Made by a program: the position numbers and the translations under genes. 64,000 nt of DNA from IMG/VR virus record IMGVR_UViG_3300045988_054045; one strand, given 5' to 3'. The notes under the pieces were generated by a model, which worked only from the letters and a program-made list of their open reading frames with translations, made no database searches and was not told the origin of the DNA. Each line of letters starts with the position of its first letter. Positions within the stretch are counted from its first letter, which is position 1. The stretch comes from a virus. Below are positions 12,081 to 59,120 of this stretch, piece after piece.

Positions 12081-12112
12081 TTTGGTGATGCAGCTTATAA
12101 TGCTTATATTTG
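12081..12112 (+). promoter_or_regulatory. Bacteroidota-type promoter (-33 TTTG, -7 TAnnTTTG)
   Basis: TTTG lies at 12081-12084 and TATATTTG at 12105-12112, with a 20-nt spacer. The site sits in the only sizeable intergenic gap of the + strand (12004-12151), 40 nt upstream of the 12152 ATG. Confidence 0.5.
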
Positions 12113-12151
12113 CAGAAATTAAGTGGTTAAACTGTTTAAACGTATTAATTT

Positions 12152-12466: not shown

Positions 12467-12485
12467 TTAGTCAACAAGGTAAGAA

Positions 12486-12516
12486 GGGGCGTATATTAAT
12501 TATATGCTCCTTTTTT
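12486..12516 (+). terminator. Intrinsic terminator after the 104-aa gene
   Basis: GGGGCGTATA (12486-12495) pairs with TATATGCTCC (12501-12510) to form a 10-bp stem that includes two G-U pairs, with loop TTAAT. TTTTTT follows at 12511-12516. Confidence 0.55.
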
Positions 12517-12530
12517 ATTATACATAGTAT

Positions 12531-19095: not shown

Positions 19096-22000
19096 ATGAC
19101 AAATTCAAAGGAAAATGATTGGCTGTTGAATAGAGTATCTAATCCTACCTTTTCTATCTCTGATTTTAAGGCAGTAGGATTAGATGCCACAAACACTTCA
19201 TTAGAAGATGCAAGTGTTTATAAGAACATTCCACAAATTCAAGATAATCCTGCATTTCAAACTGACGGCAAATTTGATGAAGCCAAGTTTGATAATATAT
19301 ATAAATACATGGCTGAGACTTACAACCAGTTGGCTGATGAGTCATATCAGGAGGATATTGTAAGCCAAGCTACGTTCCATAGAGATAATATCTTTGCAGA
19401 ACCTGAACAAAGAAGGAAAGGTCCAGATATTTATCTATCTAGGGAGGCTAACCCTCTTAGACAAAAGAGGGGGGTTAGAAGGTTGAACTTGTTGGACGCT
19501 CCAACTATGTCAGCGGATGAAGTTGCCCAAACCCAAAAAGTATTGGCTAATCCTATAGGAGCATCCAACGGTGCTAGCCCAGTGTGGCATGATTCTCCGA
19601 ATGATTCATTCTGGACTGATTTCTGGGATACTAGGGTCATGGCACAATGGGATGAAGATGGAGAACACGTAGACCCAATATCTAAAGAGCTAGTTAAACA
19701 CAAGAAGGGTGAATTAAAGCTAAATGAAAATGGAACCTACTATTATGAGAATTTAGACGGACGTGATGTTTATGGAAGGAGAGTTTTATCTAAGCTGAAT
19801 ACTCTAACTACTGATGGGTCTGCAATTAATAAATATGACTTCTTCGACTCAGACGGAATTGATAAAAGCGTTGCTGGCTCTCTAGCTAGGAATGCAATTT
19901 CAATCCTTCCTATGTTTATTCCTGGTATTAGTCCCTGGTATATAGGTGCAGGAATTGCCTTAGAAACAACTAAGGTTCTAGCTACTCTAGGTAAAGTGTT
20001 TTCTGGAAGTGACAATAAGTTCCTTTCATCTGTAGAGGGATTTACTAAGTCCTTAGAGCCTACAACCTCTGAATATGGTCAAAGCAATGCCTGGTCTATG
20101 GAGAACTTTATTAACCTGGCTGGGGATGTATTTAAGCAGCTATATGAACAGAGGTGGATATTTAAGTATGCTCCAGCTATAGTAAAAGGTAATCTAATGG
20201 ATGAAGCTGGAATAGCTAAGAAAGAATTGGAGTTCCAAAAAAAATGGGCTACATTGCAGGATTACACCAAACTGTCTCAAAAGGATATAGCTAAACTAGG
20301 TCGACAATTAGAAGAGCTTAAAGCTGTTACAGCATTAAAGGCTCAGAATGATTTAGAGAACTATATGAAGGGCTATAACAAGATAGGAGAAATTCTATCT
20401 AAGGCATATATGACTAGCATTACAGTTCAAGATGCCTATGGTGAAGCTAAGGAGCAGGGTGCTACTGACATGGAAGCAGCACTACTTACACTAGGATACG
20501 CTGCGGGTGAGTATGCTATTATTAATAGTAAGCTAGGAGAATGGATACTTCCAGAACTTAGGATGGATAAAGAGCAGATGAAGCAGGTAGTTAAAACTTT
20601 AACAGAAGGTTCTAGAAAAACTATTGATAATGCTTCTAAGGTTCAGAAAACTGAATGGATGAAGAAAATATTTAAGCTAGGTAAGGATGTTGCCCAAGCT
20701 AATTATTCAATAGGGAAGAGTGGACTAAAGGCTACTGCTGCAAATGCTCTTGGTGAAGGTATAGAAGAAGTATCTGAGGAAGTATTATATGATTTTGCTA
20801 AATCTGTTACCAATCTCGGTATGTGGTTAGCTGGTAGTGATACTCCTCCTTTACAAGCATGGGATAATATGCTAGACAGATATGGTATGTCCTTCGTCGG
20901 AGGTATGCTAGGTGGTGCTATGTTTGATGCCTTACCTAATCTTAGGGCAGCTAGGCAGCTTGGAAGTATGGATAGCAAGCAAGCTATGCAACAACTTGTT
21001 TATATGGCTAGAAATGGTAAAATGAATGATTTCTTAAAGCTGGTAAACAAGATGGAGCTTGGAAACAAGTACTTATCTGCCACTAAACTTGTAGATGGTG
21101 TAGATGGTAAGAAAATATGGGCACAGGGCACAGACTCTGATAATCAAGACCTTGCTGCTAAATCTGAGGTTAGGAGAATAGCTAAATTTGTTACTGATAC
21201 ATTAGCTGCACAAGGAGCTACTATTAGTGATGATGCTTTCTTTGACACACAAACACTTAATGACCTTAGGTTTTCTGCACTAAGAAATAGTAGTGTAGCT
21301 GCTAGTTACCTACAGGATTATAATAGCGTTTGTGAGAAGATTGTAACCCTGACCAATCAGCTTAACTCTCTTGGGGGAACTCAGGAAAGAATGGAAAATG
21401 GAGGTCCCACAGATGCACAAGTAAAAGAAAATGGTGATGAAGCAACTAAGGCTGAGAGAAGCAGACTAGAAGGAGAACTTAAGGCAGCTATTGAGAGAAA
21501 AGAGGCATATATGAAAGGAGAACTAGCTCCTCAGCTTATATATGAGTCTTTATTCGAGATGTCTACCGCTGTTAGTAGTGCATATCTATCTCCAACTCTT
21601 ATACAGTATGCTGAGAATAAAACTGGTAAGAAAGTAACAGATATTCCGAAAAACGAGTTAGAGGAAATATCCAAGGAGTACGAGGGGTGGAAGAACTCTG
21701 GATTTAAAGATGCAGTACGTACTGCCGCTTCCATCCATAAGTCTATAGCTAAAGTAATTGCTCCACTATTTCAAAATCATAGCTTAAAATACTATGAAAG
21801 TTTTGATGAAAATCTGCACTCTACATTAAGTGTCTTACAATCAGGATTGAATGAGTATGTTAATAGGCTTAACGAAACTAAAGACTCAGAGTCATTCTCA
21901 GAAGAGATGTCTCAGTTCAATGTACATTCATCAATGGGTATTATAAGCCCATTATTAGCTACTTTTGGAACTGAATCTGAGAAGTCTACGTTCACCGATA

Positions 22001-25000
22001 TTATAAATACTCCAATAACTGAGGATTATACAGCAGAGGTACAAGCGGAGCAGTATAACAAGTTGGTAGGTAAGTTCTTAGTGTCTCACATAGAGGCTAT
22101 TACTAAGCCTATTATAAATCAAGGTTACATTAATCCAGAACTAAAGAGAGTACTGAGCAGTACCCTAAATTCAGCATATTGGTACTTTATTAATCAGGCT
22201 GAATACTATGGGGATGAGAACAGTTATATAGATGCAACCAAGATGGAAGCAGCTAAAGCTCAAATTGATAAGTTGAAGCATTCAAATATCATTGAACTTT
22301 TAGACCAATTCTCTTTAAGTACTGCCGACTCAGATGTTAAAGTATCAAGTATTCTTGAAGAAACAGATGCTTCTTTAAAGGAGCATATGGAAGACCTATC
22401 TAACTTTAACCTAAATAATGAGAGGTTAGACCAAATTACTGAAGCTCTTTCAGTGATTAACATATTTAAGGCTCAGCTACTTAGTGCTAGAGTAGACAAC
22501 GCCGATTTATCTAATCTTTATGGTATGAATGTTACTATAAATGAGTTAGACTCTGAGGCTAACCTTGCTGAACTGCAATCAAATGTAGCTGACGCAATGA
22601 TGCAAGATTTGGAAGGTATTGAACTACGTCTTAAAACATTCCAAAAAATTATTGCTGCTAACAACGCTCAGAAATTAGGGGAACAAACTAGAACTGCTAA
22701 CAATAAGAATATACTTATCTATGATAGGATAAAAAGATTTATTCTTAGCATCCCTAATGACTGGTCTGGAAGGGCTGAGTTTGAGAGTGTAGTGAGTAGT
22801 CTAAGTAAATTAGAGGAAATATCTGCTGCTAAGAAGGTTAATCTTAATAAGGAGGAGAGGTTCCAAGTTGAATCAGAAATAGTTAAGTTAGATGATGCCA
22901 TATATGATTTCTTTAAAGCTAATAGCGATAAAGTAAAAAATCCAGAAGCTCTATCTAAGCTTATTAGTGTTGACAACTTTGGACTTATAACCCTAAATGA
23001 TAGTATAGAATCTCTAAACTCTAAGTCTACTAGTATAGATGATAATGCTATAGTTTGGTACATCGCCTCTAGAGCCGCAGTTCGAGCTTCTGATTTCTAT
23101 GAAGAATACAGGTCTATTATCAGTGATAAGATTGCACCTATTCCAACTCAGGAATTAGCTACTTATTTGGGATATGCATCTATACTTAATGGAGGTGTGA
23201 TAGAGAACTTCTGTGATGCTGTAAATACCTCCCTAAAGAACCACGCGGATTCTATGACTAATTCTGAGTGGGAGTCTAAGTATGGTAGAGGTATACCAAG
23301 AGAAGGTATATTAGATTCTTTAGTATCTCCAAGATTTGCTAGGGTTGCATTTATTGAGGGTATTCCTGGCAGTGGAAAGACTACTGGAGTATTTAATAAT
23401 CTTATAGTATTATTAAAGAAATATCATCCAGAAGTTCTTAAGAATGTTTGGATAGTTCATGCTACTGAAGATAGTGCTAAAGACCTTGCGAAGAACCTAG
23501 GTCTTGATACAGCAACAACTTTGGACAGGGAGCATTATATGAGAAAAATATCTCAAGAGTGGAAGGATTTCAAAGATTATCCGCAGAAGTCATCTAAAGA
23601 GGTAGACCCAACTTGGGAAGAAGACATTATGGTGTCTATAGTTGACGATGATATATACTTCGATGATAACAATATCACAAGGTCAAACTTCAAAATTAAT
23701 GAGATTTCTGAAGCACCTTCCCTAATCCTTATTGATGAAGTATCAAGACATACAGTTGTCGATATGGACTTAACTAATAGGTTCTCACAGAAGTATGGTA
23801 CTCCAGTGGTTGCAGCGGGAGACTTTGACCAAAGTAAAGCTATTGGTAGACACCTGATTAACTTCAAGGGAACAAATGTTAAGAATACCATACAACTAGC
23901 GCGTCGAAACTTTGTGAGATGTCCTAAGTTGGGAGTATCAATGAGAGCCAATAATCAGCAAGTAACAGTCAATCTTAACAACCTTAAGAGTATTCTGTCA
24001 GACCTAAGAAGCAATAATTATGGCTCTGACATAACGATGCATTACTACCAAGACAATTCTGGACTATTTGGAACTAAAGTCTATAATAGTAAAGACGTAA
24101 ATGGTTCTGTACCATATAGCATAGAATTAGTTAAGGCTGATATTGACCTTATGATTAGTAGTATGAATCCTGATGAGAAGATAGGATTTATCTATTATGA
24201 TACTGATACTGAAATATATAAGTTACTTTCAAGTGCTACTTATAAGGATAGAATAGACTTTAAACAAGGTAACTCTTCACAAGGTCTTGAAGGTAAGTAT
24301 TATATAATTGATGATTCTGCTGGTTTGGAAAACGAAGAGTACTGGGACGACCTTTATACTGGTATCTCTAGAGCTATACAGGGAAGTATCGTTCTACATA
24401 CTAAGGACAACTATAGAACCAGTAACTCTAATCAATTAGCCTCTATTCAAGATTCTTCTACTAGTGTCAGCGAATTGTCTAGGGATGGAATTAAAACATT
24501 CTCCTCTGAAAGAAGGGATATGTTAAATAGGCTTACTTTAGATAGTAAACCCACTGAACTAATTAAGAGAGAGAAAGATACTACTATACCCTCTGTTACT
24601 GTGGTTCCAGAAGTGGGATTAACCTCAGAGACTGCTACAACAGTAACTGATGACGGTACTAAGGAAACAGTGATTATCACAAATAACGGACTTCCAACCG
24701 AGAAAGATATAAGGGATAAGACCTTGGCGTCTAGTGAGGATACAACTCCACCCCCTGTACCTGCAACAAGTGTTAGCCACACCTCTAGTACTAAGACTGA
24801 AGCTATACTTGACTTACTAATGTACACATTCCCGACATTTGAATCTGGAACTACATTTGATGAGAAAGGTAATTTAATAGTAACTCCAGAAAATAGTAAG
24901 AGGTTAGATAGTTATTTCGGATTAAATAGGCTACCTGGAATCCAAGTAAAGAACAAGGAGACTTTTGATGAAGTAATAGGTAATCTAAGAAGTATTATAT

Positions 25001-27168
25001 TTAATACCTCTGACAAGGGAGACCTTATTAAAAAGGTCAAGACTTTGTTAGGTCTGGGTAATGATGTCTACTGTACATTCGCATTTAAGAGTTCAGCAAG
25101 TACTTTCAATAATGCTGAATGGGGCAGGTTTAGAAAGGATACTGGCTCAGAATCTCTAAGCTATATGTTCTCTGAAGATGAAGAGAGCAAGAACATTAAA
25201 TTGAAGACTCTATCTATTATTATAGGAGAGGGTACTAATGATGTATTAGAGCTACCTCTAGCCATTCTACCTAACCCTGTGACTGTGTTTAAGAATGATA
25301 AGTTTAAGGCAATTAGAGATGAGTATAATGAAATCTCAAGGAGAGACCCTAGTGCTACTATGTTTGATAGGTTCAATGAACTTATTAAGTTTATACAAGC
25401 TAATCCATCTATCGAGGGGGGAAGTGCTCTAGTGAACTTTTTGAAAGTATATACCTTTAACTCAAATGGTATATTCTACATAGAGGACAATAACTGGACA
25501 TTAGCTGGAGGACTAAAATCACAAGGTCCAACTATAACTAACGTCCTTAAAGGTATGGATTATGAGTATAATGGAAACTTGAAGTATGAGGGTAAATGGA
25601 TAACACTCGACGAATTATCGAAAGTTCCAGGCATGACCATCTCTAAAGTAAAGTTATCACCTAAAGGTGTGTACACATTCGGTGGAAAGACTATCAATTT
25701 TGCCAAGCCAGGACATCCTTTTGTATTTGTTAGCAATGATATAATGTTACAGGGTTCAGACCTTGAAACTTACTACTATAAACAACTTGAGGATGGCTCT
25801 GTAGAGAAGAAGGTAAAGCTAGTATATGTAGTTCCTCCAAAAGCATCAGTTAAGGAATATTTTGACAACTTGCTAAGCATAGTTTCTGGAGATAAGAACT
25901 CTATCAAAAGAATAGGTAATGACTTTACTGCTTATAGAATTATCAACATATTATCTGCTCAACCAGAGTTTGAGAAAAGTGACCTAAACTACAATACTAC
26001 CGCGTATGAAGGTATCATGCAGTTAATTGGGAAGCTTAATAATGCAGAAGGAGATACTAAAGCCCAAATGGCAATCCTTAATGACCCAGTGGATATTAAA
26101 GGTTTGAATGCCAACATTACAGGTAGACAAGCTCTTCAAAATTATCTATTAGGTTCTGTATATCCGCCAAATGCTGATAATACCAGTAGGGTGTTTAAGG
26201 AAGCTAACTTACGTTCTGTAGAACATATTCTAGGTCAAAACAAGATTCCTGGAATATTCTACAATATACAATACGATAAGTCTTCTACAGATGCTATTGC
26301 ATTGGATGCAGTATATGATGTAGGTAACTATTCTATTGACAATAATCCATTTATGGTGAATGGTAAGATAGACAGTCCTTCATTTTATGGTAATGTAAGC
26401 CCACTACTAGAAACGATAGTCAATAAAATGACTGATAAAGGTAGTTTTAAGGGTAGTAAAGATAATAGTAAGTATCTAGCTGGACACTCCCGTATAGGAG
26501 TAATTTCTAAACCAACAGTTGATACTGTCTTTAAGTCAATGAATATTAAGGCATCTACCTCTGTCATGTCAGAAATGGATATAGATACCTTACAAACACT
26601 ATCTAAGGAGCAGATTTTGGATGCGTATAGGAAGACAAACCATCTGGTAATACCTATAGGTTCTGACATCTATATAAGTGCAAAATCTACAAACCTTGAT
26701 GTGTCTAACTCTGTTGTTTCAGATATTTCCCAAATAGGTTTAAATATTCACAAATTTACCTTAACTTTGGGGAATGAAATCTTTAGTGCAGAGCTAAATC
26801 TAAGCGATAATGAGATTACCTTAATAAAGCAGGCGGATGCAACTACAGGAACTCCGCTTATTTCATTCAGTGTAAACTCACTGTCAGAAGTTGCAGAATA
26901 TAAAAACATCCTTAGTGTATTTAACTTTGCCACGCTTGGTAAGGTTCAATCTGCAAAGGGTGTGGAAGCATTTAATAAAGAAGTTAATGCTATGAGAGCA
27001 ACTTCTAAAATGATAAAAAGGATGAGTGAGGAAATCGACCAATTCGAGGGGTCTCAGAGAGACATGCTTAAGAATTTGGTAGATTTCTTGCAGTCTAAGC
27101 AAGATGAAAAGGCTCGTCTAAACACTACTGACAATTCATGTCCAATAACCATAAAAATTAAATTATAA
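19096..27168 (+). CDS. Giant protein (2690 aa) with an embedded SF1 (RecD/Pif1/viral-helicase-like) helicase core
   Basis: Motif I is GIPGSGKTT (aa 1422-1430). Motif II is LILIDEVS (D1547, E1548). Motif III is AAGDFDQS (aa 1573-1580). Motif V is SSQGLEGKYYII (aa 1727 onward). Motif VI is LYTGISRAIQGSIVL. The N-terminal third has Gly-rich hydrophobic segments, and the remainder was not recognised. Confidence 0.7.
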   Translation: MTNSKENDWLLNRVSNPTFSISDFKAVGLDATNTSLEDASVYKNIPQIQDNPAFQTDGKFDEAKFDNIYKYMAETYNQLADESYQEDIVSQATFHRDNIFAEPEQRRKGPDIYLSREANPLRQKRGVRRLNLLDAPTMSADEVAQTQKVLANPIGASNGASPVWHDSPNDSFWTDFWDTRVMAQWDEDGEHVDPISKELVKHKKGELKLNENGTYYYENLDGRDVYGRRVLSKLNTLTTDGSAINKYDFFDSDGIDKSVAGSLARNAISILPMFIPGISPWYIGAGIALETTKVLATLGKVFSGSDNKFLSSVEGFTKSLEPTTSEYGQSNAWSMENFINLAGDVFKQLYEQRWIFKYAPAIVKGNLMDEAGIAKKELEFQKKWATLQDYTKLSQKDIAKLGRQLEELKAVTALKAQNDLENYMKGYNKIGEILSKAYMTSITVQDAYGEAKEQGATDMEAALLTLGYAAGEYAIINSKLGEWILPELRMDKEQMKQVVKTLTEGSRKTIDNASKVQKTEWMKKIFKLGKDVAQANYSIGKSGLKATAANALGEGIEEVSEEVLYDFAKSVTNLGMWLAGSDTPPLQAWDNMLDRYGMSFVGGMLGGAMFDALPNLRAARQLGSMDSKQAMQQLVYMARNGKMNDFLKLVNKMELGNKYLSATKLVDGVDGKKIWAQGTDSDNQDLAAKSEVRRIAKFVTDTLAAQGATISDDAFFDTQTLNDLRFSALRNSSVAASYLQDYNSVCEKIVTLTNQLNSLGGTQERMENGGPTDAQVKENGDEATKAERSRLEGELKAAIERKEAYMKGELAPQLIYESLFEMSTAVSSAYLSPTLIQYAENKTGKKVTDIPKNELEEISKEYEGWKNSGFKDAVRTAASIHKSIAKVIAPLFQNHSLKYYESFDENLHSTLSVLQSGLNEYVNRLNETKDSESFSEEMSQFNVHSSMGIISPLLATFGTESEKSTFTDIINTPITEDYTAEVQAEQYNKLVGKFLVSHIEAITKPIINQGYINPELKRVLSSTLNSAYWYFINQAEYYGDENSYIDATKMEAAKAQIDKLKHSNIIELLDQFSLSTADSDVKVSSILEETDASLKEHMEDLSNFNLNNERLDQITEALSVINIFKAQLLSARVDNADLSNLYGMNVTINELDSEANLAELQSNVADAMMQDLEGIELRLKTFQKIIAANNAQKLGEQTRTANNKNILIYDRIKRFILSIPNDWSGRAEFESVVSSLSKLEEISAAKKVNLNKEERFQVESEIVKLDDAIYDFFKANSDKVKNPEALSKLISVDNFGLITLNDSIESLNSKSTSIDDNAIVWYIASRAAVRASDFYEEYRSIISDKIAPIPTQELATYLGYASILNGGVIENFCDAVNTSLKNHADSMTNSEWESKYGRGIPREGILDSLVSPRFARVAFIEGIPGSGKTTGVFNNLIVLLKKYHPEVLKNVWIVHATEDSAKDLAKNLGLDTATTLDREHYMRKISQEWKDFKDYPQKSSKEVDPTWEEDIMVSIVDDDIYFDDNNITRSNFKINEISEAPSLILIDEVSRHTVVDMDLTNRFSQKYGTPVVAAGDFDQSKAIGRHLINFKGTNVKNTIQLARRNFVRCPKLGVSMRANNQQVTVNLNNLKSILSDLRSNNYGSDITMHYYQDNSGLFGTKVYNSKDVNGSVPYSIELVKADIDLMISSMNPDEKIGFIYYDTDTEIYKLLSSATYKDRIDFKQGNSSQGLEGKYYIIDDSAGLENEEYWDDLYTGISRAIQGSIVLHTKDNYRTSNSNQLASIQDSSTSVSELSRDGIKTFSSERRDMLNRLTLDSKPTELIKREKDTTIPSVTVVPEVGLTSETATTVTDDGTKETVIITNNGLPTEKDIRDKTLASSEDTTPPPVPATSVSHTSSTKTEAILDLLMYTFPTFESGTTFDEKGNLIVTPENSKRLDSYFGLNRLPGIQVKNKETFDEVIGNLRSIIFNTSDKGDLIKKVKTLLGLGNDVYCTFAFKSSASTFNNAEWGRFRKDTGSESLSYMFSEDEESKNIKLKTLSIIIGEGTNDVLELPLAILPNPVTVFKNDKFKAIRDEYNEISRRDPSATMFDRFNELIKFIQANPSIEGGSALVNFLKVYTFNSNGIFYIEDNNWTLAGGLKSQGPTITNVLKGMDYEYNGNLKYEGKWITLDELSKVPGMTISKVKLSPKGVYTFGGKTINFAKPGHPFVFVSNDIMLQGSDLETYYYKQLEDGSVEKKVKLVYVVPPKASVKEYFDNLLSIVSGDKNSIKRIGNDFTAYRIINILSAQPEFEKSDLNYNTTAYEGIMQLIGKLNNAEGDTKAQMAILNDPVDIKGLNANITGRQALQNYLLGSVYPPNADNTSRVFKEANLRSVEHILGQNKIPGIFYNIQYDKSSTDAIALDAVYDVGNYSIDNNPFMVNGKIDSPSFYGNVSPLLETIVNKMTDKGSFKGSKDNSKYLAGHSRIGVISKPTVDTVFKSMNIKASTSVMSEMDIDTLQTLSKEQILDAYRKTNHLVIPIGSDIYISAKSTNLDVSNSVVSDISQIGLNIHKFTLTLGNEIFSAELNLSDNEITLIKQADATTGTPLISFSVNSLSEVAEYKNILSVFNFATLGKVQSAKGVEAFNKEVNAMRATSKMIKRMSEEIDQFEGSQRDMLKNLVDFLQSKQDEKARLNTTDNSCPITIKIKL

Positions 27169-33100: not shown

Positions 33101-36100
33101 TATAACTTATGTGAATAAGCTATACTCAGAAAGTATTAGTAAGTTGAGAATTAATCCTAGAGCTAAGATAGAAGACCCAAGTATTGATGCAATCAGAGAT
33201 TCTGCTGCTGAATTACATACGTCTTTTATTAAATCTTTGGATGTTCTAGCTGCTCGTATCCCTGCTCAGTCTATGCAATCATTTATGCCTATGAGAGTAG
33301 TGGGATTTGACGAGACTGACACAAACTCCGCCTACGTTAATTACTTCCAGTTTTGGCTACAGGGTTCTGACTTGGATATTGATAAAGTTTCCTTGTTAGG
33401 ATATTCATTTGACAGGACAGGTAAGTATGTTGGATGGAGTCCATACTTTAATTTGAGTTCTCAGAGTGCATTAGTGGAATCTGAGAAGCTGCCATTCCCT
33501 ACAAATAAAGAGTTAGAGTTGGTTGAGACTGATGATACAGCATTGACTAATTGGGCTTATGATTTTGTAGGTTCAGGGAAATTGTTTAACTTTAGTGGTT
33601 CAAAAGTTCTATTCCTGCCAGAATATGACTTGGACAATTCTTTAGGTTCAATACAATCTTTATCGAACTTCTTAAGAATGATTAAGAAAAACGGCGGTAA
33701 ATTGTATATCCCTAAAGGTTCTAGGCTTCCTTTTAACGAAATGAAGGAGTTGATTGACCGACACAATTTATACGTAAGGAACTCTAGTAACCCAGAGGAT
33801 ATGATTAAGAACTTCATATCTTCTTATATGTTCAAGATTAGTGATAATCCTATTAATTTAATGCAATCACAATCATCTATTGATGATGCTGTGGCATTGT
33901 TAAAGGATATAGCTAAAGGGTCAACAGAAGGTCAGAGAACTCTACAATTTACTCCAGGTAATGTAGTAAATAAGTATGAGTCTATGTATGATTTTCAATC
34001 TGGTAAGAAGAACGTTGGTATAGTTGCATCTGCTATTAAAGTGTATGATGGTCTAACCCATTATTATAACACTACACTAGGTAGCGGTGATGTAATGAAG
34101 CAATCTGGACTATTATTCAACAGAGTTGTTTGTGGTAAAACTTTTAGACTGTTAGCTAACTCATATACTAGTAATCTAGAATCCGTAAGAAATCCCGAAG
34201 TATTAGATGCGTTACAGAACGTAGATAATGACACTGATGCTAAGTTAGTATTCTCTGCATTAATGTCTGCTGCAACTGATAATGCTAAAGACCCGATATT
34301 GGCTAAAATCAATGCTGGTCCTAACATGATGGGATTATATACTTATGGTACAGCTATTGGTATTCCTTTAAATGATTTAGCTGGTACTATGATGTCTAAG
34401 ACTGCTCGTATCCTTTCTAAGCTTATGGACTCTAATGTATTTAATAGGAAAGATGGTATGTCAATTACCAGTGCTATTAAGTATATCGAAAATGGTCCTA
34501 GCATTGGGGAATTAGACCCTGAATTCATCTCTATACTAAAGAAGGAGTTTGGGTCTGGCACAGATGCATCTGACTTCGTAATTGGTAAGATGTTACAATA
34601 TAGACTCTCTGACTTATCTAAAGGTCACGAATTGATTGATAGCTTAAGAAAGAGAATAAGGTCTATGGAGGCGTCTATGAACAAGGTTTCAATGTATAAG
34701 TTTCTAGAAGAGTTATCTGATTATATTAGATTCGTCTATATCATAAATAATGATGTAATCACTAACTCTGAAGGGGTACAATACAGAGCCATTGATTCGA
34801 TAAAACAATTAGTTCAGGGTGCATCTGAGATGGGTAGGTTAAGGAGTATATATGCTCTTAATCAAGGTCTTCCTAACAAAGTAGAGGATAAATTTAAGTT
34901 TATCGATAAATTTGAAAGTATCTTCGAGGATAGAATAAGGGAGATTTCAGGTGAAGAGAAGGAATCAACTGTAATGGTTAATGGAATGGTTATGAAAGTT
35001 TCTGACGTTATCTCAAAGCTAAGGAATCTAACTAACGATGAAAGTAATCCATACAGAATTTCTTTCAGCAGATTCATGTCTGACGAAGAGTATAGAAATA
35101 CCTTAATTGCTCTATATGGAGGATTAAAGCATTCATTCAATGTGTTAGATGCAGCTTGGTCAGTACCTCACTACAGGGGCTACTTAGAAACTTTCCATAT
35201 GGATATGGAAGGTAATTACATGATTATGTCTAAGTACAGAATGATGAGGGATTTAGGTCCTAGAATCATCAAAGATGGTAGCTTCTATAGCAGTAAGGAA
35301 AGGTCTAATGTTTATAAGAAGCTTCAATCATTCTGTGATATGACTCTTAGAAACACTTGGATGAAAACTTCTGAAAAGGTAATTACAGTCCCAGCAGGTG
35401 TAACTATTATGAATAGTATTGGTAATACCTTTACTACTCAAGGTGATACCCCTATTATGTTAGGAACGAGGTGGGGTAATGAGTCATTTAAGATGTGGAT
35501 GGATTCTGTGGTGATTCCCGAATTAAAGGATATAGAACCTAATGAATTTATTCAATCTCTAAGTCCTATTAGATTAGATAGAACACTTAGTGGTAACTCT
35601 GCATTTGTGTATTCTTTACCAACTAATATGTTGCCTAAGTCTACATCAGAGATAGAGCGTTTAAACAGATATAAGAGAGCCTTTAATCAATTACAAGGTG
35701 CTCCTACATATCAAGGTTATCCACTAACTGATTTATTCTTCTATTATAATCTGATAAACTTTAACAACACTGTCTCTCAAAGTTCTTTGACTACAATCTT
35801 TGAGGACATCATTAGAACAAAGTCATCCCCACTGGTTGAGGAATTTCATAAATTCACATCAGTGTTAGATTCTAACTCAGAGTTAGTTGAGGGGGTAGAT
35901 TTCTCTTATGAAGAAGCTCAAAAGTGGTGTGCCCCTATTGAGGATACTAATTATTCTACTAGTTATTATGTCAGAGACTATAACAACGCAGATATGAAGT
36001 ATCATCTATTTGTAAGAAAATCTAACTCTGCTGACGTTGGTGAGGTAGATGGAGATTTTGACTATGATTCCGATTATATGGATTGGGTTGGAGATGATTA

Positions 36101-43416: not shown

Positions 43417-44672
43417 TACTCAACTGTCTTTAATAATCCTGTGTTATCAACTGTATTCTCTAGAATCTCGTGTACAAGTAACTTACCTGCTTCAATAGCA
43501 GCCTCATCGGAACCATCTTGCATTAACTTTTCTAATTGCTTAGTAACATCAAGATTAAAGATGATTTCTTCTCTTTCTACCTCAGCGTGTTGCTTTATAT
43601 CACCACCCTTTTCCTCAGTAATAACTGGAATACCTTTAGTAGTTACTTCCTCAAACTTTCCATCTACATCCTCTAAATGGTGTTTATGAGCGTGCAATGC
43701 TCCGTCTGGTATTACATTAACAGCTCCACCATTTTTGAAGCCAGCCACCTCTTCCATTCTAACTTCCTCTTGGATTTTCTTAGCTTTGCTTTTCTTTCCA
43801 TTGGATAACTTAATTACCCTCTTAGCAAACTCTCTATCCATTTTAAGTCCAGATTTACCAGCTCTTACAGCACTTTGCTGATAACCTCCATTTAGTTGAA
43901 GCTGAGTGCCCAATCCTATTAGTGGATTGTTAGAAGCAGTAAATGCCATCTGTGCTTCATCAGCTATGTTACTCATTTTTGACTGCTGCATTTGGGCATT
44001 ATGTATTTGCTGGTTAGCCTTGTTTCTAGCTTTCCCACTAAGTAGACCATACTTCTTTCCACTCTTGGTAAGAGCATCATCTACTGTGGCTTGAGTTCCT
44101 CCATATGATGAACCTACCTGTTCAAATGCTTCATTATCTTTAGTAATAGTATCTGCCTTTTTAGCTCCTATTGCATTTACTAATCCCAGAGGAGTCAGTT
44201 TAAGGAACTTGCTGTCCAATATCTTATCTGCTGTAGTCATTTGGTCAGTACCAACTCCCAAAGCTGTTAATCCATCAGATAGCATACCACCTACCTTCAT
44301 AGCACCACCAATAATAGTACCAACTCCAGGAATAGCCATTGCAGCGTTAGCAGCAGCATCATAACCTTGATTTAGACCTTCTGTAAGAGCTGATTGCTCT
44401 GTCTTTGGAATTAAACTTCCAGCTACGTCAGCTATACTTCCCGCAATACCAAACCCCTTATTAAGATTAGCTTTCTTTGTGTATGCTCTCTGTATCTTAG
44501 AGGCTTGATTCTGGTTCCATTGTTTTACACTATCTGGAAGCTCTAGGGTAGTGGGAAATGAAGGAGTCTGAATCATAGATGTAAGACTAGCAGGTTGAGG
44601 TAAAGGAGGAGTTAGATTACTCCCCCCTGTTAATACCCCTGAATTTTGATATTTCTGTATACGTTTACGCAT
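43416..44672 (-). CDS. Gly-zipper cargo or ejection-like virion protein (418 aa)
   Basis: The N-terminus is MRKRIQKYQNSG. GSIADVAGSLIP...AIPGVGTIIGGAMKVGGML is paralogous to a segment of the 1572-aa protein. The C-terminus carries FKNGGAVNVIPDGALHAHKHH. The gene is the second-to-last of the virion module, directly after the largest tail protein. Confidence 0.5.
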   Translation of the reverse strand: MRKRIQKYQNSGVLTGGSNLTPPLPQPASLTSMIQTPSFPTTLELPDSVKQWNQNQASKIQRAYTKKANLNKGFGIAGSIADVAGSLIPKTEQSALTEGLNQGYDAAANAAMAIPGVGTIIGGAMKVGGMLSDGLTALGVGTDQMTTADKILDSKFLKLTPLGLVNAIGAKKADTITKDNEAFEQVGSSYGGTQATVDDALTKSGKKYGLLSGKARNKANQQIHNAQMQQSKMSNIADEAQMAFTASNNPLIGLGTQLQLNGGYQQSAVRAGKSGLKMDREFAKRVIKLSNGKKSKAKKIQEEVRMEEVAGFKNGGAVNVIPDGALHAHKHHLEDVDGKFEEVTTKGIPVITEEKGGDIKQHAEVEREEIIFNLDVTKQLEKLMQDGSDEAAIEAGKLLVHEILENTVDNTGLLKTVE

Positions 44673-47600
44673 AACTTACAATATATAATGTTTTTAAAGC
44701 TGTTATTATAGCTAACTCATCACCAGTATACCTCACCTTAATCTTTACATATTTATCCCTAATTCTAGTTTCTTTCCTTTCATTAGACCATTTATTAACA
44801 TCTAATGACAAGAAATTAGCACTATAACCTCGGTCTCTTAATTCAGATGGAATATCAGAATCACTAGTAATGTTAAGAGCAGTCATACTCTCTGGTAATG
44901 GATTATTAACTAGGTTAAGAGGGGGATAAGTATTACCATCCTTATCTTTAACAGTCCAAGCTAATTCATTCTTAGCCCAGTAAGTTATAGAAGGAATTTG
45001 AATATCCCATTTATCCTCTAGGTAGTCCATGTTACCATTTATTCTACCATATTCCATAACCTCATACCATTTACCATTTTGAACTAGTACATTTGTATAT
45101 CCAGCTGATACAAGTGAGCTATATCTATCTTGAGTTATCTCTTGTAAATATCTCTTCTTAAAAGGACATGCTTTGATATGAGTAGCTATCTTAAATTCAT
45201 TTAGTTGTTTATCATGCACAATTTCTGAACCAGATATGTATTGATAGTCTCTACCTGCTGAGGTTACAGACTGATAGTGGTCTTCAATCTCATTCAGACT
45301 ATCTACCCTTGAATAGAATAGTGGGAACATAATTGACATATCTTTATACTTAGTAGTACTGTATAATATGTCTCTTTGTTCGGGTATAATATCCAAATAG
45401 TCGTGATTATAAACTATATCTGCACCATTGTATTGGTATAGATGTTTAGTAGCCTCTTGCCTAAAATAAGCATTCCTTTTATCGTTGGCAAAGTTATATA
45501 CTTCTCCGACAACTTCAAAATGGAAGGATTCAGGTTGAGTCTTATTGCTTATAATCTGCAGATTATTGAAGATTTTATGTACAGATGGATTATCAACCAC
45601 AATAAATTCAAACTCAAACGGATGTTGCTTTCCATACCAGTAGCAAGAACTAATAGGTTTCTTAGTAGTCATTAGTCCAGCTTGACCATGTTTCCAGAAT
45701 GAAGTAGTAAGTAAATCATATCTCATCTTAGTAACTACAGTTACATTAGAATACAATGTTTTTACTATGTTCTTAACTTCACCTTCAACTAAGTCAGTTC
45801 CCTGATTATAAACAACAGCTTTAATAGGTATTGTCCATCTACTATCTCCTACAGAGTTAGCATTAACAGATACTTGATTACCATTGGTAATAAAGAACTT
45901 GTTTCTAACCCTATCATCAGCAATGCTATATTCAATACTAGAACCACTAATATCTAGATTTAATTGAAGATTTCCCAGTTTTGCCTTACCGTCTACAACT
46001 GTTAGTACATTATCAACTATTGCCCCTCCTTGCATACCAATAAGAGGATAGTTAGAAGTTAGCTTAGTAATAGTCTTAGATGTATCTCTGTCAAAACTAA
46101 AGAATATATTATCAATATTTTCAGAATATGATGGCACCCATGAGTAGAATGTAACAAACTTTTGCATAACTTCATTATAACATAAGTTCCAAACATTCTC
46201 TTCTAATGTATTAATATCATCATAGAACGTGAACATTACATCCTGCTTAAACCTGTTATAATGTGTTTTTACGTTCCTAATACCAATAATAGGAGTCTTT
46301 TCCTTCTCCGTAAGCGAGATATTATCATTTAAGAACTTCTGTACCTTAAAATCTGAGATAACTTCAAAGGTCTGTCCATTAGTTCTCCAAATCTTCTTCC
46401 CAACGGTATCCACTCCATAAACGTAATAGGGAGTTTTTATGACACTTTCACCCCACTGAGTACCGAATGTATCACTGAGCATTTTTGGATTCTCTGGCAG
46501 CACGTTAGAGGTGTTTATGAAGATATTTCCGCCTGCACCTTCCCCTGCAACGGCTCTTTCATTGACTGGTATCAAAGCAACACCATGTTCAAATACGCAG
46601 ATAATGTTACCAAACCATTCAACTAGCTTTACAATACTACCATAGGTTAGAGGATAATCCCTATAATGAGTTAATTTAAATACTCTATATCCATTTTTAA
46701 ATGAATCATTTACATTAATGTCAGAGTACATAACTCTAATATGGAATTTATTCTTAATAGCTGGAACATTAGGTAGTTCATAATAATACTTATCAGATGT
46801 TGTGCTGTTAATACCAGCATTTGTAACAAATGATTCAGGTATTTTTGATTCTCCAGTTACTGACATGGCTTGCAATGGATAGAACCCTCTAGCTTTACCA
46901 GTAAGCCCCAATTCAGAAGTATAAGACATATCAATGCTTCTCATGGATAAATTAACATTGCTACATACTTTTATAGTAACCCAGTGTCCCATCTTAATAG
47001 CATTAACATCACCTCTATTGATTTTACCATTTTTCTCACTATCTCCAATAGTATAATTGTCTTTCCACGACATTTGGTCTACAATATCATCATTGATAGG
47101 AGCTGATGAGTCCTGGAAGTTCCTACACATTCTGTGTGTATAGTTACCTATATAACAATCACCTCTAAATAGGTTTTTAGCTATCATAGTATTCTCATCT
47201 TCATCCAAATCATCCCACAACATTCTGTTACAGATTGCATAGAAAGCAGAGGAATCCTCATATCTGATTTCGAAGTACGTGTCTAACAGGTTCTCCTCAT
47301 AGTTAGGAATTTTAATATCAATAAGACTCATCTTATTAGTATTATAACCCTCTAAGCCTATATAGGGTCCCCAACTACCTCTTAATAGATTCCTTGCATT
47401 AGAAGACTTATTAGTGTAGTTGTAGTAAGAAACTCTCCATGCTTCTTCTGCTTCTCCAGCTCTGGCACTAAATAGTTGTTTCTTACCCTTTAATGCCTTA
47501 ACATTATCACCAATAGCCATAATGTTATATGTTTCATCTTGGGTAGAATCATTAGTAGTATATGACAGATTGTAGAAATGTGTACCACTTCTATCAAAGT

Positions 47601-49356
47601 ACTTCTTACTAAACTGAGATTTAGCCATCTTAACCTCAAACTGAGTACCAGTAAACAGCTGATTAAAATAAGACTGTCTTAATTCAAATTCTGGACATAG
47701 AGCTGCATATCCTTCTAATACATTATCCTTTTCGATGTCTTCACACCTTCTATCAAAGTCATGTGTTAGAACTCCATCATTGTCCAAGAATCTCTCTACC
47801 CTATACTTATCATTTCCAGATGGAAGAACTGGTAAATGACTTGTGTTCTCTAATCCTATGGTTACAGCTTGGGCTAGTGTAGTAGGGATTCTCTTTTGTC
47901 TTACAAAGAAGAATCCTTTAGTATATCTCTTCAATTCTCTAACAGCGTCCTTACTGATTTTAATGTCAAATCCGATAGGAATTGTACCACTCTCAGCTAA
48001 TTGATTACCGTTATACTTAATTTTGATTACACCCTTAGAATTCTCATTCTGACTGTCTAACTTACTTGTCTCCTTATTGATAGGAATATATTCCCTATTT
48101 GCTTGGATAACAGCTATATTAGTAGTACTATTGGGGTCAAATCCTTCCTTAAACAAAGGATAGTCTTCCCAGGGTATTCTATCTGGGTCTCCAGGTACAG
48201 TTAATCTGCTAACACCTCTAATGTTGAATACTGGAGATAATGTATAATCATTAAGGATATATACTACCCCTAGCCTATATATTTCATCATTCCAGTATCC
48301 TAACCTATTATAGATGTTCATCACATTATAATACTCATACTGTCCTGATTCATCCTTATAGTCCTTATCTACCCTACCTATGTTATTCTCTACATTCAAT
48401 TCAGGTAGAAAATGCAGAGATAGGTCAGTAAGCTCCTTATATTCAATATCTGGATTAGCTACATTACCTAAGAATAACATATTCTGACAAGTAGTTTGTG
48501 CAGCTGCACTATTAACTACATTGTAAGCTACATTAATATCGTTGATACTAACTGCCTGAACTGTTTCAAATCCAGTAATACTAATCTTAGCTACATTGTT
48601 ATATACAGCAAACTGTTTCATAATCTTGAATGAAGTAGTCATTTCATTTCCATCAATATCTGATGTACTCCTTGTATAATAGACTACTACATTATTATAA
48701 GATGAATCTATATTAGTTAACAAGAATGAAGCTGATTTATAACTGTTCTCATCTCTAATTCCACCTTGTATAGAGGATGGGTCATTCAAATTACCAACAT
48801 GGCAAGTTACTATGCCTGACTCAGCTATAAAATCTGTCTCATTCCCATCTGAATCTGATAACTTAAAGTAAAACACATAATTACCAACTCTTAAATTACC
48901 ACTGGTATTCAATCCCATAAATGTAAGATTGGCTATGTTATTAGTTTTCTTATAAAGAGATATATCAGACTCAAAGGAATCTATATCGTATATATTGGTG
49001 TCATTATCTCCTTCTCTGTCTACAATCTGATAAGTATTCATACCTGTAGATGAGAATCTTGTGTTTATTAGCTTAGGATAGTTACTTCCATCATTAAGGA
49101 TAAGATTTACCGAACCATCATAAGATTGCTGCGTTACAATATCAATAGGATGGTTTAGGTCGAAGCTAAGTAATTCTGTATCTAAGTTAATTAAACTACC
49201 CTTTGGATACAGAATTACTCCATCTTCTACTATATCTTCATTAGTTCTGAGTACTCTTAAAGGATTATACTCATACACTAAAGCTCCTTTTTGTTGAAGT
49301 TGATTCAATCCTAAGTCAAGGTCTAATACCTTACCACTTAGTGATTTGAAATTCAT
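44665..49356 (-). CDS. Very large virion or tail structural protein (1563 aa)
   Basis: Uninterrupted 4.7-kb ORF inside the structural module. Its composition is beta-rich and Asn/Tyr/Ser-rich, which is typical of tail hub or muzzle-type proteins. No enzymatic motif recognised. The function is inferred from position only. Confidence 0.5.
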   Translation of the reverse strand: MNFKSLSGKVLDLDLGLNQLQQKGALVYEYNPLRVLRTNEDIVEDGVILYPKGSLINLDTELLSFDLNHPIDIVTQQSYDGSVNLILNDGSNYPKLINTRFSSTGMNTYQIVDREGDNDTNIYDIDSFESDISLYKKTNNIANLTFMGLNTSGNLRVGNYVFYFKLSDSDGNETDFIAESGIVTCHVGNLNDPSSIQGGIRDENSYKSASFLLTNIDSSYNNVVVYYTRSTSDIDGNEMTTSFKIMKQFAVYNNVAKISITGFETVQAVSINDINVAYNVVNSAAAQTTCQNMLFLGNVANPDIEYKELTDLSLHFLPELNVENNIGRVDKDYKDESGQYEYYNVMNIYNRLGYWNDEIYRLGVVYILNDYTLSPVFNIRGVSRLTVPGDPDRIPWEDYPLFKEGFDPNSTTNIAVIQANREYIPINKETSKLDSQNENSKGVIKIKYNGNQLAESGTIPIGFDIKISKDAVRELKRYTKGFFFVRQKRIPTTLAQAVTIGLENTSHLPVLPSGNDKYRVERFLDNDGVLTHDFDRRCEDIEKDNVLEGYAALCPEFELRQSYFNQLFTGTQFEVKMAKSQFSKKYFDRSGTHFYNLSYTTNDSTQDETYNIMAIGDNVKALKGKKQLFSARAGEAEEAWRVSYYNYTNKSSNARNLLRGSWGPYIGLEGYNTNKMSLIDIKIPNYEENLLDTYFEIRYEDSSAFYAICNRMLWDDLDEDENTMIAKNLFRGDCYIGNYTHRMCRNFQDSSAPINDDIVDQMSWKDNYTIGDSEKNGKINRGDVNAIKMGHWVTIKVCSNVNLSMRSIDMSYTSELGLTGKARGFYPLQAMSVTGESKIPESFVTNAGINSTTSDKYYYELPNVPAIKNKFHIRVMYSDINVNDSFKNGYRVFKLTHYRDYPLTYGSIVKLVEWFGNIICVFEHGVALIPVNERAVAGEGAGGNIFINTSNVLPENPKMLSDTFGTQWGESVIKTPYYVYGVDTVGKKIWRTNGQTFEVISDFKVQKFLNDNISLTEKEKTPIIGIRNVKTHYNRFKQDVMFTFYDDINTLEENVWNLCYNEVMQKFVTFYSWVPSYSENIDNIFFSFDRDTSKTITKLTSNYPLIGMQGGAIVDNVLTVVDGKAKLGNLQLNLDISGSSIEYSIADDRVRNKFFITNGNQVSVNANSVGDSRWTIPIKAVVYNQGTDLVEGEVKNIVKTLYSNVTVVTKMRYDLLTTSFWKHGQAGLMTTKKPISSCYWYGKQHPFEFEFIVVDNPSVHKIFNNLQIISNKTQPESFHFEVVGEVYNFANDKRNAYFRQEATKHLYQYNGADIVYNHDYLDIIPEQRDILYSTTKYKDMSIMFPLFYSRVDSLNEIEDHYQSVTSAGRDYQYISGSEIVHDKQLNEFKIATHIKACPFKKRYLQEITQDRYSSLVSAGYTNVLVQNGKWYEVMEYGRINGNMDYLEDKWDIQIPSITYWAKNELAWTVKDKDGNTYPPLNLVNNPLPESMTALNITSDSDIPSELRDRGYSANFLSLDVNKWSNERKETRIRDKYVKIKVRYTGDELAIITALKTLYIVSYA

Positions 49357-57698: not shown

Positions 57699-59120
57699 TT
57701 AGGCTTCTTTCATAATGAAGCTTCTGTATGGAGAGAATACTCCAACACCAGAATAACCCCAGTTGATAACCTTAGATGCAGCTGTAGTACTTGAAACAAT
57801 ACCAGAGCTTAGACCATCTAGACCACCCACACCTGGGTACTTATTAGTAATGAAGTCACCACCCTTTAATGTGAACATTTGGATAGCTGGTTCACCACTA
57901 GTCTTATCAGCAGTAAGGTCAAGCATTAGACCAAAGCCTTTCTCAGAACCCCATTCACGAGAGAATGTTCTATCAACCTTGAATGAAATAGTGTTACCAC
58001 CGATTTCATAGCTATTGAATGTAGCACCAACGTCTACATATCCATTAGCCTTCTTAGACCATAGATAAGTTCCACAAGTTTTGAATCTAGCAAGCCACTC
58101 TGATAGACAGCTCTGAATGTCATTCCACATCTTTTCGTTGCAGATGAATACGTACTTGTTACCTGTTGGGTTCTCACTCTTTTCATTCATCATAGCCATA
58201 GCAGTAGTGAATGCTTCTGGAGTAAGTTTGTTATATACGTACTTAGATGCAAATCTCTCGATTTGTGGGATGATACCGTCACCAATATAGATTGGACGAC
58301 CAGTGTCAGGGTCAGAGATTGTTGGTTTACCGTTCTTATCTACGTTAGTCTTATTGAATAATAGACCTTGATTACGAACTTCCAAGAAGTTTCTTAATAG
58401 ATTCTTCTCAAGAGTATCCATCTTATACATTGTCTCTTTTACAGCACCATTACCTTCACCCTTACCAATGCTGATGAATGTTTGCTCAAGTGGCTTGAAT
58501 AGAGAAGTATAGCTATCATCAACACGGTGTGTAGTGATGTAACCTCTGTGTCTTTCAATGTTAGATTGATACTTAACATATCCCTCTTCATGTGCTTCAG
58601 GCATAGCGTTAGATTGGAAACGAGTAGTGTCACCAATTTGGCATCCGTCTAAGTCTAGGATTGAAGAATAGTCGTTATCAATTAGTCTTACCTCAACTGT
58701 CCAATAGTTATCTGCAACTCTTGTAGGTCTGGAGATAACTTGGCATTGCTGCATAGTCTTGTCAATCTTGAAAATGTCATACTTCTGGTAATAGTTCTCT
58801 TTGAACGCCATTACGATGGTTGTACCACCTTCACCATTAGTTGCTGGAACATCTGCGAACTCAACTCTCTTAATGTAGTTAGTTTCAACTTCCCACTCGA
58901 AGTACATACTATCAATGCTTCTGTACTTGCTATTTGATTTAGAATCCATGTAGAAGATATTTCTTAGAGATTCTGTTAAGTAAGAAGCAGTTAAGTTAGG
59001 GTAGAGTCTTGAAACTATACCAAGTCTAGTTGGTTTTGTGCCTAAGAACTTATAGAAATCTTCATAAGTTCTAGTTTCGCTCATTGTAGGGCGATTGGTT
59101 ACGAAATTTGCTACTATCAT
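57699..59120 (-). CDS. Putative major capsid protein (473 aa)
   Basis: The call rests on position and size. The gene directly follows an acidic coiled-coil scaffold-like gene and lies downstream of a host-type promoter. It is preceded by fibre and lysin genes and followed by small structural genes, matching the gene order reported for crAss-like phages. The fold is not verifiable by eye. Confidence 0.5.
   Translation of the reverse strand: MIVANFVTNRPTMSETRTYEDFYKFLGTKPTRLGIVSRLYPNLTASYLTESLRNIFYMDSKSNSKYRSIDSMYFEWEVETNYIKRVEFADVPATNGEGGTTIVMAFKENYYQKYDIFKIDKTMQQCQVISRPTRVADNYWTVEVRLIDNDYSSILDLDGCQIGDTTRFQSNAMPEAHEEGYVKYQSNIERHRGYITTHRVDDSYTSLFKPLEQTFISIGKGEGNGAVKETMYKMDTLEKNLLRNFLEVRNQGLLFNKTNVDKNGKPTISDPDTGRPIYIGDGIIPQIERFASKYVYNKLTPEAFTTAMAMMNEKSENPTGNKYVFICNEKMWNDIQSCLSEWLARFKTCGTYLWSKKANGYVDVGATFNSYEIGGNTISFKVDRTFSREWGSEKGFGLMLDLTADKTSGEPAIQMFTLKGGDFITNKYPGVGGLDGLSSGIVSSTTAASKVINWGYSGVGVFSPYRSFIMKEA

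Follow-up and report, generated by a model that had tools for sequence, protein, structure and literature searches.

CrAss-like phages dominate the viral community of the human gut, and little is understood of how they begin an infection. The locus described here raises the question of why such a phage should carry a helicase in the middle of a giant protein, next to a gene that might encode the RNA polymerase (RNAP) of the virion. It was found in a 64,000-nucleotide (nt) stretch of the IMG/VR virus record IMGVR_UViG_3300045988_054045, and this whole stretch is called the window below. The protein in question is a 2,690-amino-acid (aa) open reading frame (ORF), the helicase giant. Its residues of about 1341-1780 form a complete, divergent helicase core of superfamily 1 (SF1), which is nearest to the SF1B branch and has two RecA-like domains. 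This core belongs to a divergent SF1B clade that is locked into the giant of the crAss transcription block. The coordinates of the features are collected in Table 1.

The helicase motifs carry this assignment. A preliminary description, made from the letters of the stretch, had listed five peptides typical of SF1 helicases at residues of about 1415-1770 (23340-24400). All five were located in the translation at that place and in the canonical order, and the span was accurate; the folded domain is bigger (aa ~1341-1780). Six motifs (I, II, III, IV, V and VI) are collinear at aa 1422-1767 (nt 23359-24396). When the protein was shuffled 5,000 times with its composition preserved, the collinear set never arose, even in relaxed versions, and therefore it is no chance pattern. 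The preliminary description had also made its claim depend on the conservation of the motifs. In an alignment of 23 orthologues, with identity down to 34%, 13 catalytic-type residues are invariant (K1428, D1547, E1548, G1575, D1576, Q1579, R1617, Q1729, G1730, E1732, Y1754, T1755 and R1759). Motifs I, II, III and VI are present in nearly all of 54 IMG/VR loci, and the motif IV sequence GVSMR or GVSLR is kept in most of the IMG/VR relatives.

The core is apparently catalytically intact in sequence, including the arginine finger. Since the catalytic residues are invariant and only the N-terminal region of the giant is more conserved than the domain, enzymatic activity is likely to be retained. 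It is very improbable that the domain is a catalytically dead relic, in which a helicase-derived fold is kept as a structural or DNA-binding module. The divergent 2A domain (UvrD_C_2, E=0.24) might suggest such decay, and simple patterns for motifs V and VI fail in some distant relatives. However, the Walker A Lys, the Walker B DE, the GDxxQ, the motif IV Arg, the QGxE and the motif VI Arg are all among the invariant positions, and four motifs persist across the IMG/VR loci. Such conservation is unexpected without catalysis, and therefore the relic reading is contradicted.

The family assignment was examined by profile and structure comparison. The preliminary description had proposed an SF1 helicase of the RecD/Pif1/viral type and suggested both kinds of search, and SF1 helicases were recovered by both. 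The Pfam models AAA_19 (E=4.4e-8) and AAA_30 (E=1.4e-7) matched aa 1416-1585, both above the curated cut-offs. AAA_30, the RecD/TraA-type model, was matched in 17 of 17 diverse orthologues, and AAA_30/AAA_19 were the sole Pfam domains there. The best helicase in a comparison of the domain profile with the PDB was nsp13 of Middle East respiratory syndrome coronavirus (E=3.6e-4), with motifs I, II and V/VI collinear. An AlphaFold2 model of the domain, built on the orthologue alignment, had a mean predicted local distance difference test score (pLDDT) of 80. In this model an N-terminal helical cap is followed by the RecA-like domain 1A, β-hairpin insertions and the RecA-like domain 2A; the insertions are two β-hairpins between motif III and domain 2A.

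The top Foldseek matches of the model in the PDB were nsp13, the SLFN11 helicase domain, RecD, RecD2, Upf1, Ighmbp2, Sen1 and the arterivirus nsp10 (E ~1e-7 to 1e-5, probability 1.00, about 400-510 columns over the full SF1 cores). The identity to the SF1B matches was 11-15%, and the template modelling scores were about 0.3. These low scores are probably due to different poses of the RecA-like domains and to accessory elements. The best matches in BFVD were giant fragments named 'RecD-like protein [Siphoviridae sp. gcode 4]' (E=6.8e-20; e.g. UniProt A0A8S5RTY8); a 'Helicase [Podoviridae sp.]' (E=2e-12) and Dda were also matched. The domain shares two RecA-like domains and the motif order I-VI with SF1B enzymes such as RecD/RecD2, Dda, Upf1 and nsp13, of which nsp13 works in physical coupling with a viral polymerase. 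These enzymes are free-standing or part of RecBCD; whereas the helicase of the window is embedded in a 300-kDa protein.

The curated RecD family was not recovered: no NCBIfam family was matched at E<=0.01, and the RecD profile score in the PDB reached just E=0.11. Judged by these profiles, the domain lies outside the RecD family proper, and 'RecD-like' is a generic label. Direct searches with the full protein or the domain were also empty in PHROGs, NCBIfam and PADLOC, as was a phmmer search of the full protein against the PDB. Megablast of the window against 50,697 phage records found nothing closely related. The sole match in a permissive tblastn search of the helicase domain was the unannotated record MT835470.

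Table 1. Features of the window, with positions counted from its first letter.
Feature	Position	Strand	Remarks
Helicase giant ORF, 2,690 aa	19096..27168	+	ORF list and translation; >1,163 homologues
N-terminal region, aa 1-730	19096..21285	+	Identity 49%, 96/730 invariant columns; most conserved part
Middle region, aa 731-1340	21286..23115	+	Identity 32%, 16/610 invariant columns
Helicase region, aa 1341-1780	23116..24435	+	Identity 41%, 31/440 invariant columns
SF1B-like helicase core, aa ~1341-1780	23116..24435	+	AlphaFold2, Foldseek PDB and BFVD, Pfam AAA_19/AAA_30
Motif I / Walker A GIPGSGKTT, aa 1422-1430	23359..23385	+	G1422, G1425, G1427, K1428 invariant
Motif II / Walker B LILIDEVS, aa 1543-1550	23722..23745	+	D1547, E1548 invariant
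Motif III AAGDFDQS (GDxxQ), aa 1573-1580	23812..23835	+	G1575, D1576, Q1579 invariant
Motif IV region KLGVSMRANN (R1617)	23926..23955	+	G1613, R1617 invariant
Motif V SSQGLEGKYYII, aa 1727-1738	24274..24309	+	Q1729, G1730, E1732 invariant; aligns with nsp13 motif V
Motif VI LYTGISRAIQGSIVL, aa 1753-1767, arginine finger R1759	24352..24396	+	Y1754, T1755, R1759 invariant; aligns with nsp13 motif VI
Ser/Thr/Pro-rich variable linker, aa 1781-1890	24436..24765	+	Identity 25%, 0/110 invariant columns
C-terminal region, aa 1891-2690	24766..27165	+	Identity 29%, 20/800 invariant columns
Putative virion RNAP ORF, 3,097 aa	27171..36464	+	Starts 2 nt past the stop of the helicase ORF
RNAP catalytic motif D-L-D-I-D, aa 2067-2071, within WLQGSDLDIDKVSLLGY	33369..33383	+	D2067, D2069, D2071 nearly invariant
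Two upstream ORFs, 1,572 aa and 612 aa	12531..19084	+	No recognisable domains
RecB-family PD-(D/E)XK nuclease ORF, 1,569 aa	37542..42251	+	PDDEXK_1 E=7.3e-9, aa 163-370
Crassvirus muzzle protein gene	44665..49356	-	Pfam crAss_MUZ E=3.5e-28
Crassvirus major capsid protein gene	57699..59120	-	Pfam Crass_capsid E=1.2e-14; tblastn to annotated crAss-like major head proteins

The distribution of the domain was followed in several databases. A database search revealed more than 1,163 homologues of the giant, almost all of 2.6-3.1 thousand aa. An exhaustive hidden Markov model search of 1.84 billion (1.84e9) representative proteins gave 487 matches at E<=0.001. The best 150 of these 487 were almost all giants of 2.6-3.6 thousand aa or shorter apparent pieces of them, and among these 150 the helicase is placed at about aa 1,330-1,700 and never stands alone. 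The 54 IMG/VR loci have it at about aa 1,416-1,614 of an ORF of 2,687-3,222 aa, with 2 loci ending at a contig edge; over the helicase domain, the window is identical to an IMG/VR contig of 185,565 bp. The helicase can thus be described, from these searches, as a closed clade tied to this giant protein, which suggests that it co-evolved with the giant and is no general replication helicase.

Cellular genomes were also searched, and a cellular origin or a prophage was rejected, since 185,579 bacterial and archaeal species genomes contained a single matching contig, which is probably mis-binned. This contig (CAZHBQ010000002.1; 78 kb) comes from the metagenome-assembled genome of an uncultured Methanobacteriaceae archaeon, and its helicase domain is 35% identical. 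A contig of a crAss-like phage that was mis-binned into the archaeal genome is the probable explanation; a hint of the host is less likely. In about half of the IMG/VR relatives, TAG must be decoded as an amino acid for the giant ORF to stay open. The helicase giant gene of the window and of its close relatives follows the standard code.

The gene downstream of the helicase giant encodes a putative virion-type RNAP, as judged by its catalytic motif. The alignment of the 3,097-aa family contains a nearly invariant WLQGSD-x-D-I-D-K, which reads GSDLDIDK at aa 2065-2072 in the window. The same block is seen in other crassviruses: GSDFDIDK in cr124_1, SGSDFDVDK in crAss001 gp50 and DFDID in phi14:2 gp66, an RNAP that has been validated by experiment. 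All crAss RNAPs were reported to have I or V at the fourth position of the motif (phi14:2 gp66 study, 10.1101/2020.03.07.982082). A scan of the ORF for D.D[GAS]D found an acidic tail only, the RNAP motif having I at position 4. The profile of the ORF gave weak, collinear matches to crAss001 gp50; no Pfam, PHROG or PDB match was obtained, and the comparison with the cr124_1 RNAP found nothing. The crAss motif GSDLDIDK in this ORF agrees with the earlier statement that a virion RNAP gene lies next to the giant. The RNAP motif also follows the helicase giant in all 25 IMG/VR loci with sufficient 10-kb flank.

The two genes are part of a giant block (12531-42798) that is tightly packed, with a gene spacing of -10 to +11 nt. 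The ORFs in this block are, in order, 1,572, 612, 2,690 (helicase), 3,097 (RNAP), 361, 1,569 (nuclease) and 180 aa in length. A similar block is annotated in Lera, a phage of the Zeta group (PV725988), whose ORF191 is a 'RecD-like protein' of 8,346 nt and 2,781 aa (Babkin et al. 2025, PMC12386605 Table S1). The order in Lera is a 1,887-nt ORF, ORF191, a 6,321-nt ORF, a homing endonuclease and a 2,631-nt 'DNA-dependent RNA polymerase'; the 4,614-nt ORF186, named 'exonuclease V', lies further along (PMC12386605). Compared by the annotation table only (names, sizes and order, not sequences), the two phages share the size class and the succession of an ORF of about 620 aa, the helicase giant, the RNAP and the PD-(D/E)XK 'exonuclease V' giant; the 612-aa ORF of the window matches Lera ORF192 (628 aa) by position and size. 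The label 'RecD-like' in Lera is an automatic name without analysis. Lera also differs by its recoded stop codons and its intron-split RNAP; whereas the genes of the window are intact under the standard code. The Lera block lies directly downstream of the muzzle gene, co-directional with and within the late structural operon (PMC12386605); whereas the block of the window is convergent with the structural module, which ends at the muzzle gene.

The RNAP gene is interrupted just before the DxDxD motif, at the same place, in MT835470.1 (23877-30722) and in Lera (ORF190/189/188). The RNAP ORF of MT835470 stops at profile position 2078, and in Lera the homing endonuclease lies between the two parts; the RNAP ORF of the window is uninterrupted.

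The better characterized crassviruses have giants beside the RNAP as well. The virions of crAss001 contain the RNAP-associated giants gp47, gp49 and gp50, as detected by mass spectrometry (PMC10172136), and those of phi14:2 contain gp65, gp66 and gp67. These proteins are similar to the helicase giant in being very large, largely α-helical and encoded beside a DxD[I/V]D RNAP. However, phi14:2 gp65 has a zincin protease domain and no helicase. In crAss001, the six muzzle, cargo and RNAP-associated proteins examined (gp44-gp50) contain no P-loop and no match to the helicase or full-length profile. Two proteins of cr124_1, a delta-group crassvirus, were considered as precedents and rejected. The first, gp01 (NC_055899.1, 22-7902), is named 'DNA helicase' in RefSeq. 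With TAG read as Gln it shows no P-loop and no profile match, and it has the RNAP motif GSDFDIDK at aa 1604, which makes it a TAG-recoded virion RNAP; the name looks like a misannotation in the reference genome. The second, gp02 (7917-14123), is adjacent and named 'hypothetical'; it has a P-loop (GHPGTGKT, aa 101), a zincin motif (HELAH) and a weak AAA_22 match (E=0.06), and is no SF1 helicase. Fragment 4 of a giant 'DNA helicase' of the crAss-like phage cr118_1 was also matched in BFVD (E=1e-6), and is a candidate for a helicase domain in a giant of another crAss family. Among the genomes examined, the SF1 module is confined to the Zeta-type lineage, and the core is a lineage-specific insertion into a giant of the crAss 'transcription gene block' of Zeta-type phages.

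The function proposed for the giant starts from the neighbouring polymerase. The phi14:2 gp66 was found to be efficient on single-stranded or denatured DNA and not on double-stranded DNA in vitro (10.1101/2020.03.07.982082). Because this enzyme copies single-stranded and hardly duplex DNA, it was considered that the helicase might open the template. The giant would be carried in the virion and enter the cell by ejection, as may be expected from the block proteins of cultured crassviruses. Using ATP, the ejected helicase would then translocate 5'-3' on one strand of the entering genome, which would generate or preserve single-stranded DNA and strip off bound host proteins. The virion RNAP encoded by the next gene and delivered together with it would then start early transcription. 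Packaging, ejection or docking would be the task of the conserved N-terminal 730 residues and of the variable C-terminal third. We regard it as quite possible, although tentative, that an ejected 5'-3' helicase opens the incoming DNA for a virion RNAP that prefers single strands. A stronger form of this proposal, in which Zeta-type crassviruses inject an SF1B helicase and a two-barrel RNAP as a self-sufficient 'unwind-and-transcribe' machine, is doubtful.

The virion RNAP of phage N4 (gp50) is a related case. It is an injected giant that uses a non-duplex promoter template, and accessory factors remodel the DNA first. N4 uses the host gyrase and SSB and is not known to rely on a phage-borne helicase for this, and its RNAP is T7-like and not two-barrel.

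The conserved order of helicase giant and RNAP, in the 25 IMG/VR loci and in Lera, is a supporting context for the template-opening proposal. The giant is a putative virion cargo protein by its gene position; its packaging is suggested by the analogy with crAss001 gp47/49/50 and phi14:2 gp65-67 and by the late-operon position in Lera. Several points weigh against the proposal. The virion placement comes from gene position, Lera is metagenomic, and apparently no Zeta phage has been cultured. The cargo analogy is positional, and no homology of the giant to crAss001 gp44-gp50 or to the two cr124_1 giants was detected. The RNAP identity of the neighbour is based on a short motif and weak collinear profile matches, and the 2A half of the helicase stays below Pfam significance. 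The same RNAP occurs in other Crassvirales families without an SF1 helicase giant, and therefore a helicase is no general requirement for the function of the virion RNAP. The giant block of the window is convergent with the structural module, unlike that of Lera. Moreover, ejection of a folded 300-kDa helicase would require unfolding and refolding.

The rest of the giant gives some further hints. The preliminary description had counted about 1400 N-terminal and 900 C-terminal residues of unknown function, and about 1,340 and 900 aa were indeed without a recognisable domain in Pfam, PHROG and PDB searches. The regional identities in Table 1 are mean pairwise identities among the orthologues. 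The N-terminal 730 aa are mostly α-helical (AlphaFold2 pLDDT 64), with no Foldseek match in the PDB at E<=0.001 and no PDB profile match. A primase-helicase was considered and rejected, since AlphaFold2, Foldseek and the PDB profile search gave no primase or polymerase fold in this region. The middle region (aa 731-1340) has no Pfam, PHROG or PDB match. In the MT835470 homologue the giant profile matches just to position 1863, and the C-terminal third is different and unalignable. On this alignment, the C-terminal region is replaceable between lineages. The major capsid protein of MT835470.1 is 86% identical to that of the window; whereas the helicase giants are only about 26% identical. Either the giant block was exchanged between lineages, or it is evolving far faster than the capsid.

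The swapped C-terminal third, together with the difference between capsid and giant identities, suggests an arms race. Instead of serving transcription, the giant could be an anti-defence polyvalent cargo protein like DarB, with a motor on the incoming DNA that shields it from restriction enzymes and host nucleases or strips them off. DarB of phage P1 is a virion-packaged antirestriction protein with a methylase-SF2 (superfamily 2) helicase dyad (Iyer et al. 2017, PMC5512222). Helicase modules are also common in giant multidomain proteins that are delivered with phage DNA, and a few plasmid giants carry UvrD-like SF1 helicases (PMC5512222). Like the helicase giant, DarB and the other polyvalent proteins are very large and have a helicase module; they are packaged in the head, delivered with the DNA and act at the onset of infection. 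However, the DarB helicase belongs to SF2 and is fused to an adenine methylase; whereas the helicase of the window is SF1, and the packaging of its protein is putative. No methylase, peptidase or other polyvalent-protein domain was found by Pfam in the 17 orthologues, and PADLOC gave no match. The linkage with the RNAP gene is conserved, and strong conservation, as seen in the N-terminal 730 aa and in the helicase, is not what an effector under rapid diversification would show. The anti-defence role is therefore considered unlikely.

The nuclease gene leads to another explanation. The 1,569-aa ORF, three genes downstream of the helicase giant, contains a RecB-family nuclease domain (Table 1). 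The giant might thus be an unpackaged intracellular helicase that works with the PD-(D/E)XK giant, as a split RecBCD/AddAB-like system for replication, recombination or host-DNA degradation. The names 'RecD-like' and 'exonuclease V' for the two Lera genes (PMC12386605) fit this explanation; RecD and RecD2 were among the best structural matches, and the block of the window follows nucleotide-metabolism genes on the same strand. However, a helicase that is always embedded in giants at about aa 1,330-1,700 is atypical of replication or recombination, the N-terminal region has no primase or polymerase fold, and no NCBIfam RecD equivalog was matched. Moreover, the Lera block follows the muzzle gene as part of the late structural operon, and the replication helicases of crAss phages (DnaB, SNF2) are encoded in a separate replication block (Yutin et al., PMC7886860). 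Taken together, an intracellular helicase-nuclease system is improbable.

Two small ORFs flank the nuclease gene. The 361-aa ORF (36466-37551, + strand), between the RNAP and the PD-(D/E)XK giant, has an HExxH motif (HEMLH, aa 204) and no Pfam match. It may correspond to the zincin-like protease beside the RNAP in other crassviruses (phi14:2 gp65; cr124_1 gp02 with HELAH). The 180-aa ORF (42256-42798, + strand) at the end of the block gave weak nucleoside-monophosphate-kinase-like matches far below the curated cut-offs (best phosphomevalonate kinase, E=4e-5; guanylate kinase models, E ~0.004-0.006), and may encode a deoxynucleoside monophosphate kinase.

The size of the genome bears on one more explanation, in which the helicase is a DNA-entry motor. 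Anchored at the envelope or the tail channel, it would reel the 185-kb genome into the cytoplasm, comparable to the transcription-driven internalisation of T7, with a dedicated translocase as the driving force. Among crAss-like phages, this lineage has the largest genomes (contigs of 150-190 kb), and the smaller genomes of crAss001 (102.7 kb) and cr124_1 (101.5 kb) have no such helicase. SF1B enzymes are also processive single-strand translocases. However, the entering DNA is duplex; whereas SF1 helicases track single strands. No transmembrane segment was predicted in the giant (no 19-residue window with Kyte-Doolittle >1.4). This role is quite unlikely, and the opening of the template for the RNAP is preferred.

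The preliminary description had stated that such a domain seemed undescribed in crAss cargo proteins. This holds for the characterized crassviruses, with crAss001 gp44-gp50 free of P-loops; whereas the domain is already labelled 'RecD-like' in Lera and in UniProt/BFVD. In the full-text literature, no paper was found that discusses a helicase in the crAss cargo or transcription-block proteins, and the word 'helicase' appears 0 times in the crAss001 structural atlas. As far as we found, the domain has been flagged by annotation pipelines and has received no functional analysis. The label 'RecD-like protein' is uninformative on the role of the protein, whether it is ejected or intracellular.

The one crAss virion RNAP studied biochemically hardly copies duplex DNA, which poses the question of how such an enzyme reaches the entering genome in the cell. 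The conserved, apparently active helicase beside the RNAP gene is a candidate for how a single-strand-preferring virion RNAP does so in one abundant crAss lineage. Few proteins with a helicase are candidates for delivery along with phage DNA, and this one would extend that list by an SF1 member. If the template-opening proposal is true, this would be, to our knowledge, the first virion-delivered helicase that serves early transcription in a bacteriophage. It would also be a conceptual parallel to the helicases in poxvirus cores for early transcription. If the protein is intracellular, the locus would represent an unusual giant helicase-nuclease gene pair.

The other genes of the window indicate the identity of the phage. 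The muzzle and capsid proteins were matched by Pfam models, and the window is a divergent crAss-like phage of the Crassvirales, as had been supposed; most of the window proteins have no PHROG match. The relatives of the giant ORFs are located on contigs of 150-190 kb. The Zeta group is characterized by large genomes, variable recoding and interrupted RNAP genes, and this lineage accounts for 13-18% of crAss reads (Yutin et al., PMC7886860). The phage belongs most likely to Zeta (proposed Echekviridae), because of its 150-190 kb relatives, the TAG recoding in about half of them and the Lera-like gene order. No tRNA gene was found by ARAGORN within the 64-kb window; whereas 26 tRNAs were reported in Lera. 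Any tRNA genes would therefore be located elsewhere in the genome of about 185 kb.

Two further gene groups were observed upstream of the giant block. A P-loop protein with SbcC-like/ABC-ATPase-like PHROG matches (2543-3220, + strand) and a metallophosphoesterase (4355-5047, + strand) might be an SbcCD-like nuclease pair. They are followed by a run of NAD-related genes (6018-10155, + strand), which were assigned by PHROG as nicotinamide phosphoribosyltransferase (6018-7184), NAD synthetase (7341-8285), nicotinamide-nucleotide adenylyltransferase (8542-9102) and Nudix hydrolase (9586-10155). This run could be a salvage or reconstitution module of the kind proposed to act against NAD-depleting defence.

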